Origin: Candidatus Cloacimonadales bacterium
GTDB lineage: Bacteria; Cloacimonadota; Cloacimonadia; Cloacimonadales; JAIOQZ01
DNA length: 64,000 nt
Direction of reading: 5' to 3'
Assembly (NCBI GenBank): GCA_963674825.1
Contig: OY771587.1
Coordinates: forward strand, 1,280,001-1,344,000
How positions within the stretch are numbered: position 1 is the first letter of the stretch; each line of letters starts with the position of its first letter. Both the position numbers and the translations under genes were made by a program. The notes under the pieces are model-generated. The model worked only from the letters and a program-made list of their open reading frames with translations. It made no database searches and had not been told where the DNA came from. Positions 52,433 to 63,621 of this stretch are shown here, in pieces.

Positions 52433-52684
52433 TCAGGTGGAGAAAATCAACAGCAGTGCGATAACCAGAGAATAGATACCGGTCGATTCGGATACGGCCT
52501 GACCCACCAGCATGGTACGCATAAGCAGGTTCTGATTTTCGGGTGAACGTGCGATACCTTCACATGCCTTACCGGCAACGAAACCTTCACCAACACCGGG
52601 TCCGAGCGCTCCGATACCCATACAGATGCCCGCGCCAAGAAACGCCGCAGCTTTTGCGATGCCTTGTGCCAATGTCATTTCCAT
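52433..52684 (-). CDS. atpE: Fo subunit c (single hairpin, Na+-binding signature)
   Basis: PGVGE(33)G and E66-S67-T68..Y71. Confidence 0.96.
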   Translation of the reverse strand: MEMTLAQGIAKAAAFLGAGICMGIGALGPGVGEGFVAGKACEGIARSPENQNLLMRTMLVGQAVSESTGIYSLVIALLLIFST

Positions 52685-52723
52685 TTTTTCCTCCTGTTAT
52701 GTAACAGTCTTTATGTTTTCAGT

Positions 52724-53476
52724 TTATAATGCAAAGATTAACAGGAACGCGATCACAAGCGAGTAGATCGCGGTTGATTCGGAAACCGCAGCTCCAAGGA
52801 ACATGGTTCGAATCAGGTTGTTCTTCTGCGCAGGGAAGCGTCCGATCGAGTCGTTCGCACGACCCGCAACGAATCCGATACCAGAGCCAGGACCGAGCGT
52901 ACCGAGTCCGATGGCAAAGCCGGCACCAATATAGGCAGCCATCTTCATGATGATGTTCGCCATGCTCGCGTTCTCGGGCTGGAAAGGCGTCGAGAACATA
53001 AGAAGGAGCGATACAACCAATGCGAAAATGGAGCTCGATTGCGAAAGTGCCTGGCCGATCAGCATGTTACCCATCAGGATGTTCGATTGGCGCGGATTGC
53101 GTCCGATCGATTTACATGCTTCACCACCAGCATAACCCGCACCAAATGCAGGACCGACCGCGCCAAGCCCGACTGCGATACCAGCCGAAAGAAGCGCTGC
53201 GAAACGATACCACCCACCTGCTACGACGTCAATTCCACCGAACAGCAGCAGCAGCGCTACAACCAGCGCGAAAATACCGCCGGTCTGTGTGGCCGCCTGG
53301 CCGATCAGCATCGTGCCGAAGAGACGGTCATAAGCCTTGGGTTGCCTGGAAAGAGCCAGGGTCGCCTGGTCGGCAATCGTTCCACTGCCGATACCGCTTG
53401 TTACCGATGAAATTCCAACGCCGATTCCGGCGCCCAAATAAGCCGCGATCTCTACGATCTCTTTTGTGAATACCAT
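52724..53476 (-). CDS. atpE: Triplicated Fo subunit c (3 hairpins, 6 TM)
   Basis: Three c-subunit repeats with loops RQP, RNP and RFP; the catalytic position is Q64, Q146 and E233. Confidence 0.92.
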   Translation of the reverse strand: MVFTKEIVEIAAYLGAGIGVGISSVTSGIGSGTIADQATLALSRQPKAYDRLFGTMLIGQAATQTGGIFALVVALLLLFGGIDVVAGGWYRFAALLSAGIAVGLGAVGPAFGAGYAGGEACKSIGRNPRQSNILMGNMLIGQALSQSSSIFALVVSLLLMFSTPFQPENASMANIIMKMAAYIGAGFAIGLGTLGPGSGIGFVAGRANDSIGRFPAQKNNLIRTMFLGAAVSESTAIYSLVIAFLLIFAL

Positions 53477-58591: not shown

Positions 58592-60754
58592 CTATTCATC
58601 AAATTCTTTGTGCTTGTACTCCAGAACCATGATCTTCGTGGTGGCAGACTGCCCACTAGCTTCAAGATGGCAGAAATAAATACCGGTCTTCAGGCTGGTT
58701 CCATCCCATTGCATGACATGTTCTCCAGCCGGGAGACCCTCATCGATCAGCGTCGTAACCTTTTGTCCACGAGCATTATAGAGCATTATCTTCACACGCC
58801 CTTCGTCTGGAACAACAAACGCAATCCGAGTTTGATAATAGAATGGATTTGGATAGACCTTGATGCTTGTTTTCCTATTAGAATTTGGCGGTTCAACCGA
58901 TATTCCTGTGGTATTCCACTCATAACAGCCTATGTCGATCAAACCATCATGGATGCGCGGATTACCGGCGAAATCAGTCTCGGGCATCGCTACATACGGG
59001 ACATCGAGAGTACCGCTATCGATGCAAGGCGAATCGTCTGAAAGAAGGAAGGGATTACTTCCGTATCCATAGAACGCAGGATCATCCGCGATATTCCCCT
59101 CGCCGTCGTATCCACCTTCGATATCGTTGTAGCGGATATACATCGGCTTACCTTCGTAGATCTGGCCACCCATAAAGAAAATGTTTTCGTTGCCGTAAAC
59201 GATGTTATTGTATAGAATTGGCTTGGATATAAAGTTGTGCACCGGTAGCGTGTTGTCAAATTCGCTTTCGTTCAGCAGATTATTGCCGGTGAACGTGTTG
59301 CCGATCATCTTTGGGTAGGAGTAGTTACTGCTGATAATCGAGCCCATGGCCAGCGCATAGCATTTGTTGACCAGGTTGCCGACAATCTCGGGATTGGATT
59401 GCGCGTCGCAATAAAATGCTCCGCCGTGGTGCGCGAGGCAGTTGTGAATATAGCAGTTCTCGATCCTCGCCTTGGAGAAATCGAAGAAGTAGAATGCGCC
59501 GCCCCGCTCAGCCTTGCTATACGCGATTTCACAGAATTCCAGTCGCGAAGCATCATTCAGCGACGAAGTGTTATCGAATCGGATACCGTTCCAGCAGCTG
59601 GTTTCAGCATCGTCGATAGTGAAATTCTCCGGATCGCTGGAGATGAATCGAATCCTGTCGTCTGGTGTACCGATCGCCGTGAGCGTGCCCTGCACATTCA
59701 GCGCGTAGAAACCATCGAAGATCACCTGCACGCCCGGCTGGATGACCAGCTCAACACCATCCGCAATTGTGACATCGTCTATCACATGAATGGTCTCCGC
59801 CTGCCACACAGTGTCCTCGTCGATCACACCACCTACATCCTCGCGGAATCCACTGTAATAGCGATAGTGCCGCATTTTCTGGACAGGTTGCGAGACGCTT
59901 ATAGTTGACGCGAAGGTCTGACAGCCATAGCCTACGGCGGCAGAGCCTGCGACCGGCATAAAGAGTCCATTCTCGGGATCGGTGAGTTGTGGATTCTCAC
60001 CCAGGATATTGTTGTAAGGAGCCGACCCGGCATCCTCCCACGGTTCCGGGAGTACTCAGCCCCAGTCACAGAGCAAGCTGAAGTGCGTCAGCAAGCCTTG
60101 GTTGAGTTCCTCGTCGCTATGCCACGACCAGTTCTCTATGACATCCGGAATACCGAAGAAACCATACTGGATGCTGTAGGAGTAGCTTGTACCGGATGGA
60201 AGCCATTCGGAGGCGATACCGGTATTGTATATATAATCGTAGCCGGTGTCGATGACATCGACGCAAAGATTTCGTTCCAGCAGGATTCCCTCGCCCGAAG
60301 CCTGTAAGCGAATGCCGTAGTCTTGCGGCTTGTAGAACGTTACATAGCGAACGCTACCCTGCGGAAGCGCGACCAACTCCGAATTGATCCCACGAAAGCG
60401 GATATTACCGTTGATCACCACACAATCGGAAATATCCAGACGATTCTCGCAGAAAGAGATACAAATCTGCTCGCCCTGCATGTCGAGAATCGCTCCGTTT
60501 CCGATGATGCGGGTATCGACACCCTCTTCGCCATAGAGCTCGTACAGCGCTGGGTCCAGCAACCCGCCGATCAGCAGTCCTCCCGTGTAAGTAACGCCGG
60601 TTTCCAACTCGACAAGCTTCTCGTAGTAATGATCCTGATCGTACCCTGCCTCAGCAGCATCGAACACTTCCTTCAGAGAAAGTCCGTTCAAAACAGCGGT
60701 CAGCAAAAATATCAGAATTACTATAAACGTTCTCATAACGCAACACAGAGACAT
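58592..60754 (-). CDS. Secreted parallel beta-helix protein with T9SS-like CTD, containing one in-frame UGA at 60056-60058 (candidate selenocysteine/readthrough; 720 aa if read through)
   Basis: ORFs 60056-60754 and 58592-59959 share a frame and are joined by 32 sense codons; the signal peptide is only in the first and the CTD only in the second. Confidence 0.7.
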
Positions 60755-60961: not shown

Positions 60962-60998
60962 AAAAAAAATCCCCGACGCGGGATAACCACATCGGGGA
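60962..60998 (-). terminator. Intrinsic terminator of gyrA
   Basis: TCCCCGA/TCGGGGA stem followed by T8 on the minus strand. Confidence 0.8.
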
Positions 60999-61020
60999 CT
61001 GATTTATTTACCTATCGTTT

Positions 61021-63621
61021 TTACTCTTCTTCTTCTTCGTCTTCGATCATCGATTCATCCATGATCTCTTCGTCTTCGCTTTCTTCATCGTCATCAACTA
61101 CATATTCATTATTGTCTTCGATGATTTCGTCTTCATACTCGGCATAGAGTTCTTCTTCCGAGATCGGTTCTGCGTTTTCGTCCTCTTCCTCATCGTATTC
61201 TTCTTCTGCCTGAATACGTGAGACATCGATCACCTTGTCGTTCTGATTCAGCCCGATCAGCTTGACACCCTGCGTGTTCCGTCCGATTACGCTGATATTG
61301 GCAACAGCTTGGCGGATGATCATGCCGTTCTTGGTGATGATGATCAGGTCGTCATTATCGACCACTTCAAGGAGCGATACCAGATGTCCGTTGCGATCGG
61401 TTGTCTTGAGTGTGATAACACCTTTTGAACCACGTTTGGTCACGGTGTAGCTGTTGATTTCGGTACGCTTACCATAGCCGTTTTCGCTGATGGAGAGCAG
61501 CGTGCCTTCACGCTTGACGACAACCATAGCCATCACCCGGTCTCCCGGACGCAGGCTAATACCTCTGACACCCTGTGAGTTGCGGCCCTGAGCTCGAACA
61601 CCATCTTCGTTGAAGCGATTCGCAAAGCCATTCCAGGTTGCAAGGATAATATCGTTGGTTCCTTCGGTGATCTTTGCATCGATGAGCTCGTCGCCTTCGA
61701 TCAGCTTAATCGCGATAATACCATTAACACGTGGACGCGAGTATGCTTCAAGCTCGGTTTTTTTGATCACACCATTACGGGTCACCATTGTTATGAAGTG
61801 CGGATTGCTGAAATCGCGCACGGTCACGAATGCCTTGATCTTCTCGTCTTTGAGCTGGAGAAGGTTGACAATCGCCTTACCTCGAGCCAGACGGCCCATA
61901 CGTGGAATTCTATGCACCTTGAGCCAGTAGCACATACCTTGATCGGTGAAGAACAGAATATAAGAGTGGGTTGAGGCGACGAAGATCGTCTCGATGAAGT
62001 CTTCATCCTTCAGGTTCGAACCCGAGAGTCCCTTTCCACCACGGCCCTGTTTGCGATAGGTGTCGATCGGAAGGCGCTTGATATAGCCTTCGTGCGAGAT
62101 CGTGATCACCATCTCTTCGTCCGCAATCATATCTTCTGTTTCGATATCGCCGGATCCGTCGAGGATGACAGTACGACGATCGTCGCCGTATTTTTCCTTG
62201 ATTTCAAGGGTCTCATCCTTGATGATCTGCATCCGAAGCTCTCGTGTTGCCAGGATATCCTTGAGATCCTTCACCGTCTGAACGAGATTAAGATATTCTT
62301 CTTCCACCTTTTCGCGTTCGAGCCCGGTAAGCTTTTGAAGACGCATTTCCAGAATCGCTTTCGCCTGGATTTCCGAAAGCCCAAATCTTGTCTGCAAGTT
62401 GTCGCTTGCATCCTGAACGGTCTTGGACTCGCGAATCGTCTGAATAACAGCGTCGATATTATCCAGCGCAATGCGATAACCTTCGAGGATATGGAGGCGC
62501 TTTTCGGCTTTGTCCAGTTCGAACTGAGTTCGGCGCACCACCACTTCGTGGCGGAAATCGATGAAGCTCTGAATCATCTGCTTCATGCTGAGGATCTTCG
62601 GCTCGCCATTGACGAGCGCGCGATTCATCACGCTGAAGGTTCCCTGAAGCTGTGAAAATTTATAAAGCTTATTGAGGACACTGTTGCCCTCATAGCCGCG
62701 CTTGATGGTTATAACGAGACGCATTCCCTGGCGACCGGATTCGTCGCGGATATCGGAGATGCCATCGATACGTTTGTCCTTCACCAGCTTTACGATGCGC
62801 TCGATAAGGAGCGTTTTATTGAGCTGATAGGGAATTTCGCTGATAACGATCTGCTCTGAATTGTTGTTTTTCGTCTCGATTGCTGCCTTACCGCGAAGCG
62901 TCACTTTGCCGTGACCGGTCGTGAAGTATTCCTTGATACCTGCCCTACCGATCAGGAATCCACCGGTCGGGAAATCGGGGCCTTTGATATATTGCATCAG
63001 ATCCAGCGATTCGATATCGGGATTATCAATCTGCGCCACGATACCGTCACAGACTTCGCGAACATTGTGCGGAGCCATGTTGGTAGCCATACCAACCGCG
63101 ATACCGGAAGAGCCGTTGCAAATAAGGTTGGGGAATTTTGACGGGAATACCTTCGGTTCCTTACGGGTATCGTCGTAGTTTCCCTGGAAATCGACCGTAT
63201 CTTTGTCCAGATCGGCCATCAGATCAACAGCCGCCTTGTGAAGTCTCGCCTCAGTATAACGCATTGCAGCGGGAGGATCACCATCCTGCGAACCGAAGTT
63301 ACCCTGACCATCGATCAGCAGATAGCGCAAACTCCACGGCTGCGCCATACGAACGAGCGTCGGATAGACGACCTGCTCACCGTGCGGATGGTAGTTACCG
63401 GATGTATCACCGGCGATCTTCGCGCACTTACGGAAGCCTCTTCCGGGCGACAGGTTGAGTTCGTTCATCGCATAGAGAATACGACGCTGCGAGGGTTTCA
63501 GTCCATCCCGTGCATCCGGCAAAGCTCTGGAAACAATAACGCTCATGGAATATTCCATGTACGCTTTTTTCAGAACATCCTCAATTTCAATATGTTCTAT
63601 TCTTGATCTGTCATGTATCAT
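61021..63621 (-). CDS. gyrA: DNA gyrase subunit A
   Basis: RALPD.RDGLKP, YHPHG, AAMRYTE, GyrA-box QGRGGKG, acidic tail. Confidence 0.98.

Follow-up and report, generated by a model that had tools for sequence, protein, structure and literature searches.

Bacterial selenoproteins that depend on SelB and on a SECIS hairpin within the coding region have Escherichia coli FdhF as their type case. In the published criteria for bacterial SECIS (bSECIS) elements, the apical loop has 3-9 nt with a G in its first two positions and lies 16-37 nt past the UGA (PMC13188914 Fig. 2), and the stem has at least 4 bp and an energy of -7.5 or lower (same figure). The 2026 selenoprotein catalogue gives 119 families in its Table 1 (PMC13188914). 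Some described families hold two Cys/Sec residues close together, as does the protein reported here: in TsoA (NF045695, LULAxC, i.e. U-x3-C), TsoB (NF045694, UxxxxU) and the metal-binding UxxU protein (NF041115) the pair is three or four residues apart, and some members of this group have two Sec residues near each other. Another comparable family is the Omp28-related selenoprotein (NF045500, 'GOS_C', UxxC), which has relatives in the same phylum, some of them with an in-frame TGA.

The present locus lies in a window (the whole stretch of DNA that was analysed, 64,000 nucleotides) from a Candidatus Cloacimonadales genome. It is like the SelB/SECIS selenoproteins of bacteria in having an in-frame UGA where a homolog has Cys, selA, selB, selC and selD in the genome, and a hairpin 16-37 nt downstream with a G starting a small loop. 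In contrast to the families in Table 1 of PMC13188914, it has a predicted beta-helix scaffold, a sequence of its own and the motif order CxxxU or UxxxU. The TsoA, TsoB and NF041115 models do not match the protein, which differs from all three in the C-x3-U or U-x3-U order and in the predicted beta-helix; NF045500 does not match it either and has a different motif. Since NF045500, judging from its name, is probably exported too, export alone would probably not be new. We put at about 0.9 the probability that both annotated ORFs belong to a single gene in which the UGA is decoded as selenocysteine (Sec), giving an exported protein of 720 aa; this estimate takes in the insertion and export steps described below and is drawn from sequence comparison.

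The split gene and its UGA column

The gene is on the minus strand, with a gyrase-A-like gene and rsmG as neighbours. Positions 60754..58592 form a single frame of 721 codons with two stops only, the TGA at codon 233 and the final stop at codon 721 (Table 1). An earlier note on this DNA had described a 232-aa ORF ending in HFSLLCDWG and a 455-aa ORF continuing it; both are in the ORF list (the second from ATG 59959) and share one frame, and the bridge sequence and the RNA 3' of the UGA quoted there match the window exactly. The resemblance of the bridge to 'N..DP.F' was also borne out, the motif being a repeated beta-helix cap present in many large proteins. The CTD assigned to the second half was recovered with TIGR04183 (40.3 bits, cut-off 23), and the signal peptide assigned to the first half stands as a signal-peptide-like start judged by eye only. 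The start codon is ATG 60754 or ATG 60736, and the homolog alignment begins at the latter. The terminator-like hairpin upstream suggests that the gene is transcribed separately from the gyrase-A-like gene. No relevant match was found in an Rfam scan, and the N-terminal domain had no match in Pfam or NCBIfam. Two runs of the same sample (depth 35 and 41) yielded contigs that span the stretch and are identical to it; as the sample is possibly the source sample, this agreement argues only against an assembly error.

Table 1. Positions of the features of the split gene and its surroundings in the window
Feature	Position	Strand	Remark
Whole coding frame	58592..60754	-	720 aa, Sec (likely) at 233
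Signal-peptide-like segment MRTFIVILIFLLTAVLNG	60683..60736	-	Judged by eye; homologs with similar hydrophobic starts
N-terminal domain of the family (aa 26-281; predicted right-handed beta-helix extending across the UGA)	59912..60679	-	AlphaFold2 and VIA
His224, five residues before the first Cys/Sec	60083..60085	-	His in 162/164
Cys229 (TGT), first position of the (C/U)xxxU motif	60068..60070	-	Cys codon 113, TGA 51 of 164
In-frame UGA, likely Sec233, after C-D-W-G	60056..60058	-	TGA 163, TGC 1 of 164
Likely SECIS AGGA-U-GCCG[GGU]CGGC-UCCU	60017..60036	-	Apical loop 60027-60025; 28 nt past the UGA
Weakened copy of the other family hairpin UGG-NN[GGA]NN-CCR	60028..60040	-	G.G mismatch, about -1 kcal/mol
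Second right-handed beta-helix region (PF13229)	59114..59587	-	E 6e-6
Choice-of-anchor Q segment (NF041518)	58916..59050	-	29.9 bits, cut-off 25
T9SS type A sorting domain (CTD)	58625..58858	-	TIGR04183 and PF18962, both above cut-off
Terminator-like hairpin 3' of the upstream gyrase-A-like gene	60968..61000	-	Consensus match only

Two further observations were made in the window. The gyrase-A-like protein ends in a long, highly acidic tail (61021-61150). At 52433-53476 there are two adjoining ATP synthase c-type ORFs of 83 aa and 250 aa, the larger resembling three fused c-like repeats (both by eye).

A first survey of 61 related genomes found the N-terminal domain in 18, and the column of codon 233 was TGA in 17 of these and Cys in one. 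In a wider survey, a 24-sequence profile was run against three phylum samples and metagenome stretches. The family was present in 56 of the 232 genomes of the source phylum and in 17/31 and 36/208 genomes of the two other phylum samples, and 147 metagenome stretches matched, 80 of which entered the analysis. Parsing succeeded for all but two (L093 and L201) of the 207 loci examined, and the remaining 205 yielded 164 distinct sequences from several phylum-level groups; L037 was left out as a non-homolog (28% identity, E 2e-4). The second site, at codon 233, is TGA in 163 sequences and TGC in one, with no TGG, TAA or TAG. The first site, four codons upstream, has a Cys codon in 113 and TGA, which gives UxxxU, in the other 51, and His stands five residues ahead of it in 162. 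Because close kin are among them, the 164 sequences should not be counted as that many independent events; in a quick 120-row tree without bootstrap, the UxxxU state changes 10 times, at least four of these changes being forced by well-supported branches.

Of 125 loci, 85 have a frame of over 380 codons beyond the UGA, 36 have one that runs off the contig or the fetched stretch, and four have a short one (49-347 codons). The proposed check for a conserved UGA or Cys with an open frame behind it thus returned 163 TGA and one Cys among 164 sequences, and a long or open-ended frame at 121 of 125 loci. The apparent stop at this place, kept in 163 of 164 related sequences, very likely encodes selenocysteine. 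In protein databases the family appears cut short: 444 matches were obtained, and among the 120 listed, 117 stop exactly at C-x-x-G/S/A before the second site and the other three just before the first. The closest titled relative, L024, is 83% identical and labelled Ca. Cloacimonadales. The only Cys-Cys member, L013 (genome G025), has TGC at the second site; its retention of the clade-B hairpin described below and the presence of selA, selB and tRNA-Sec in its genome suggest a recent Sec-to-Cys change.

As separate observations, the unparsed locus L093 (G226:C39:11334-12082; sites TGC/TGA) is a family member split by a frameshift ahead of the motif, from either an assembly error or a pseudogene, and two truncated members, P0004 and P0032, are filed under Armatimonadota and Lokiarchaeia labels. 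P0032 may be a mis-binned bacterial contig.

Selenocysteine machinery and the RNA downstream of the UGA

The genes for Sec synthesis and insertion (selA, selB, selC and selD), which the earlier note had suggested looking for, are all present in the source genome: tRNA-Sec, selA, two copies of selB and two of selD. TGA is an ordinary stop elsewhere in this genome (512 of 1625 long ORFs), and the only tRNA with a UCA anticodon was called as tRNA-Sec. Within the phylum, selA was found in 106 of 232 genomes and in 50 of the 56 holders of the family. Five of the six holders lacking selA carry selB, two of them being also checked for tRNA-Sec; selA or selB is therefore present in 55/56, and the exception, G192, is 64% complete. 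Conversely, the 98 genomes of family f3 have neither selA nor the selenoprotein gene. In a set of 12 genomes, selA was found in ten, and selB and tRNA-Sec in the other two. In 70 more genomes that hold the family or its sister branch, selB was found in 66 and not seen in four.

The arrangement of these genes in the source genome was also recorded. The selB copies are at G000:C1:1965227-1973662 (L003) and G000:C1:2700991-2704273 (L001, L002); one sits with selA, and the other adjoins tRNA-Sec, which directly follows sprA, the gene for the T9SS translocon. The two selD genes, at G000:C1:154782-155696 (L004) and 133401-134324 (L005), are both Cys forms. One of them is fused behind a cysteine-desulfurase-like domain in a 750-aa frame (domain identified by eye), possibly a Sec lyase-SelD fusion judging from its sequence.

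Eight family checks and noisy de novo scans found no second selenoprotein gene in the source genome. None of its matches to MvhD, AhpC/Prx, Trx, molybdopterin and Pyr_redox_2 has a TGA, GrdA gave no match (the controls were silent too), and the Omp28-like matches are below the NF045500 cut-off, with no internal stop in the four places listed. Twelve tail-bearing frames in this genome have an upstream TGA, and only the gene at 58592..60754 resembles a split gene. At G000:C1:3348394 (+), an in-frame TGA lies in a long frame (396 + 1113 codons, ...IDEFRV-stop-NVVR) with no SECIS-like pass; Trp is presumably usual in that context, and the TGA is probably a nonsense change or an error. Elsewhere, Omp28-related genes with an in-frame TGA, all below the NF045500 cut-off, were seen at G035:C122, G035:C47, G011:C50, G015:C27 and G026:C1:627069 and in G031, G036, G040 and G018. 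These are possible further exported selenoproteins of the phylum.

The region 3' of the UGA was scanned with our own script, which approximates the published criteria and is not bSECISearch. A SECIS-like fold was obtained in 131 of the 164 family sequences, 33 failing the script, versus 10-16% of controls (71 of 710 true TGA stops of the source genome and 96 of 609 positions elsewhere in the family genes). In the window, the hairpin 60036-60017 falls within the published ranges, with a GGU loop at 28 nt, a 4-bp upper stem and -10.0 or -11.7 kcal/mol in two calculations. Compared with shuffles, the window folds show no excess stability (z -0.9 and -1.2), so support for a SECIS comes from the family and not from this fold alone.

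The position of the hairpin differs between clades. In clade B (n=42), an AGUUG loop lies 18 nt past the UGA on a stem of six pairs, with compensatory changes at three of them, for example G-U, A-U, G-C and U-A at 17-29. Clade A (n=81) has two hairpins, UGG-NN[GGA]NN-CCR at 20 nt in 49 sequences and GCC-G[GUU/GGU/GUG]C-GGC, with a core of three pairs, at about 28 nt in 37/81. They are almost mutually exclusive, with 39 sequences having the first only, 27 the second only, 10 both and five neither, and the window carries the second type and a mismatch in the first. Compensatory pairs at 22-26 in clade A are A-U in 21 sequences, C-G in 25 and U-A in four. On the initial 29-sequence alignment the first hairpin was 84% paired; only four of 500 shuffles were as high, and slid controls reached 22-52%. 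Synonymous codons are constrained as well: in clade B, kin included, Val is GTC in 36/36 (background 10%) and Ser is AGT in 41/41 (background 15%), and Ala is GCC or GCT in 79/79 sequences, the kin among which are not independent (background 54%). The bSECIS and covariation analysis proposed earlier hence detected a SECIS-like hairpin 3' of the UGA that is under RNA-level constraint.

The two folds first suggested for this region fared less well. CUCCC/GGGAG and CCCGG/CCGGG can both form (-8.7 and -7.4 kcal/mol), but three of their five pairs are kept in only 17-37/81 and 15-37/81 clade-A sequences, respectively. Both were rejected as the SECIS for lack of conservation. The first of them, CUCCCG/UGGGAG in the predicted fold, can coexist there with the core but also begins too near the UGA. 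From these comparisons, the SECIS of the window is likely the 60036-60017 hairpin and not either of the two first proposed. SelB with Sec-tRNA would very probably bind the hairpin 18-28 nt downstream and insert Sec at the UGA. Where the motif is UxxxU, a single hairpin region would need to act on two UGAs 12 nt apart.

Predicted fold, probable export and possible chemistry of the (C/U)xxxU loop

AlphaFold2 modelled the 256-residue N-terminal domain with a pLDDT of 96, and of 94-96 over the last 56 residues, which include the motif and the bridge. The high values through the part past the UGA imply that the stop cuts a domain. The predicted model fits a right-handed parallel beta-helix, with Z scores of 10-14 to many such chains; the best VIA result, among the 318 chains from Foldseek, was 7dmk_C (Z 14.3, rmsd 3.4, 190 aligned residues, 12% identity). 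Foldseek on the PDB gave nothing at E <= 0.001, and the PDB sequence search matched the C-terminal cap only. Thus the predicted pectin-lyase-like fold is like that of PL6 alginate lyase 7dmk, pectate lyases and NosD at 12% identity, a likeness of fold that shows no function; no functional match was found, the fold matches being generic lyase-type beta-helices at about 12% identity. The overall layout is like that of T9SS cargo with beta-helix and choice-of-anchor-Q parts.

The search for a T9SS covered SprA and tail motifs; the source genome has SprA above cut-off and 182 PNPF-type tail motifs. It is probable that the putative signal peptide directs the full-length protein to the Sec translocon and that the CTD then directs it to a SprA-type T9SS. 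Termination at the UGA would leave a product without the end of the domain and the CTD. Gene neighbours recur only within close clades (a PrsW protease, an aldo/keto reductase with Fe-S, other CTD proteins), and the neighbourhood was rejected as a shared functional system for want of conservation beyond them.

A full profile search of protein databases returned 195 matches. The short forms P0137, P0144 and P0145 consist of the family domain and the tail only; the second beta-helix, being absent from them, is likely a spacer. P0175 is a Cys form. P0139, known here from protein sequence alone, is lipoprotein-like, has two rhodanese domains fused ahead of the family domain and ends just before the first motif site. 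W-x3-W was read, from protein sequence alone, in P0122-P0124, of which two are full-length database proteins and the third is a cluster mate. These were taken as UxxxU translated with TGA as W, since P0122 and P0124 have a further W immediately past the point where the family usually ends.

In a sister branch, 18 of 28 aligned proteins end at C-G or C-x-x, nine are full-length with C-x-C or similar, and one has W-G-C. At the DNA level, three loci have D-C-G-TGA, an open frame behind it and a hairpin in common; a fourth has a TGA and this same hairpin, and others read C-G-C. Spacings in this branch are CGU, CGC and others, and the His is missing. Loci L266, L268, L269 and L271 (G530, G532, G534 and G536) were noted as encoding short secreted beta-helix proteins with D-C-G-UGA and a GGGAUC...GGUCCC hairpin. 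In a more distant branch, one locus (L227) has WGGW with real TGG codons at the matching loop, which indicates that the domain can exist without Cys or Sec; a WGGW that hides UGGU was ruled out at this one locus.

The free exchange of Cys and Sec at both sites indicates that both act through their chalcogen. Most selenoproteins with Cys/Sec motifs are likely redox proteins according to the catalogue (PMC13188914). Lying towards the end of the N-terminal beta-helix, the H-x4-(C/U)-x3-U loop might cycle between a reduced form and a selenylsulfide or diselenide, which we regard as about an even bet, and on the same footing it would act on extracellular disulfide or sulfane-sulfur substrates. That the protein is a surface thiol/selenol redox site is, on the sequence evidence, likewise evenly balanced. 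The CxxxU surface selenoprotein put forward in the earlier note is well supported as regards Sec, by the conserved TGA/Cys column, the co-occurrence of Sec machinery with the gene and the constrained hairpin.

The same selenoprotein could instead use its His/Cys/Sec loop to bind a soft metal (Cu(I), Hg or Zn) as a surface scavenger or chaperone, which is rather unlikely. Sco proteins bind copper by CxxxC plus His, and here His is found at -5 in 162/164. In addition, weak matches to NosD were obtained for six of the 28 sister-branch proteins (best E 3e-5), and the fold matches include a complex that contains NosD (Z 10.6). However, the NosD matches are generic to the beta-helix and rank below the lyase rows, no metal-handling genes recur beside the gene, and the sister branch is without the His and has variable spacing. 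This variable spacing and the rhodanese fusion both speak for a redox pair carried on a loop rather than a fixed site for metal.

Termination always competes with Sec insertion at a Sec UGA, and the short ORF has a signal-peptide-like start and no CTD. The UGA might therefore be a selenium switch, low selenium giving a short periplasmic form with a role of its own and selenium giving the long exported form. We find this doubtful: with high confidence, the predicted domain extends some 48 residues beyond the UGA, so the short form would be an incomplete fold; that of UxxxU members would have neither motif residue; and the Cys member L013 is unable to make one.

Readthrough without Sec, by Trp or another amino acid through near-cognate decoding, or reassignment of TGA to a standard amino acid, would accord with W-x3-W in the three database proteins (from protein sequence alone) and with the real TGG codons of the distant branch. 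It is nevertheless very improbable, as Cys is the only sense codon at the site, the neighbouring Cys codon repeatedly swaps with TGA, the gene tracks the Sec machinery, and TGA is a common stop in a source genome whose sole UCA-anticodon tRNA is tRNA-Sec. The generic programmed readthrough to short and long forms that the earlier note had offered as its other option is likewise not supported, the site being only TGA or Cys and the neighbouring Cys swapping with TGA. A true stop (two genes, a pseudogene or a sequencing error) is hardly credible: there is an in-frame ATG 33 codons on (59959) and gene callers annotate two proteins, but the column of this ATG is not conserved, TAA or TAG occurs at the site in 0/164 sequences, the bridge is conserved as protein, and the contigs agree with the window.

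Novelty and significance of the family

With Sec insertion at the UGA as the preferred reading, the family was compared with described selenoproteins. No selenoprotein model of NCBIfam 20.0 matched the read-through protein at E <= 0.1, and none in NCBIfam matched the 28 sister-branch proteins at E <= 0.01. According to PMC13326102, BSepDB searched known families only, Cloacimonadota genomes being included. A description of the family was not found in the full-text literature, a body that mostly leaves out subscription journals. The family is apparently new to the 2026 catalogue, as far as Table 1 of PMC13188914 covers it, and to NCBIfam. Unlike in the bacterial selenoproteins compared, Cys-only homologs are very rare here (1/164). 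Searches based on Cys/Sec pairs miss families without Cys homologs, a limitation stated in the paper on deep-Sep (PMC12013277), and the near-absence of Cys homologs means that this family marks a blind spot of these searches.

More tentatively, the gene may be the founding member of a superfamily of beta-helix seleno-redox enzymes (CxxxU, UxxxU and CxU) exported to the cell surface and performing extracellular sulfur/selenium chemistry by diselenide. Such a superfamily might belong to anaerobic Cloacimonadota, Eisenbacteria and related uncultured phyla, a suggestion of the same tentative kind. It is likewise conceivable that the protein is the sole selenoprotein of the genome and that the full Sec system, with the second selB and selC beside sprA, is kept on its account. 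The overlapping hairpins of some members could, equally tentatively, be a two-position SECIS for two UGAs.

What the family would bring to the selenoprotein catalogue is the beta-helix as scaffold, CxxxU/UxxxU as motif order and, as the likely location, the cell surface reached via T9SS. It is widespread in uncultured anaerobes, in which gene callers split the gene in two. The natural series CxxxC, CxxxU and UxxxU and the SECIS hairpins that shift in position offer ready-made tests both of the contribution of Sec and of the decoding of two close UGAs.
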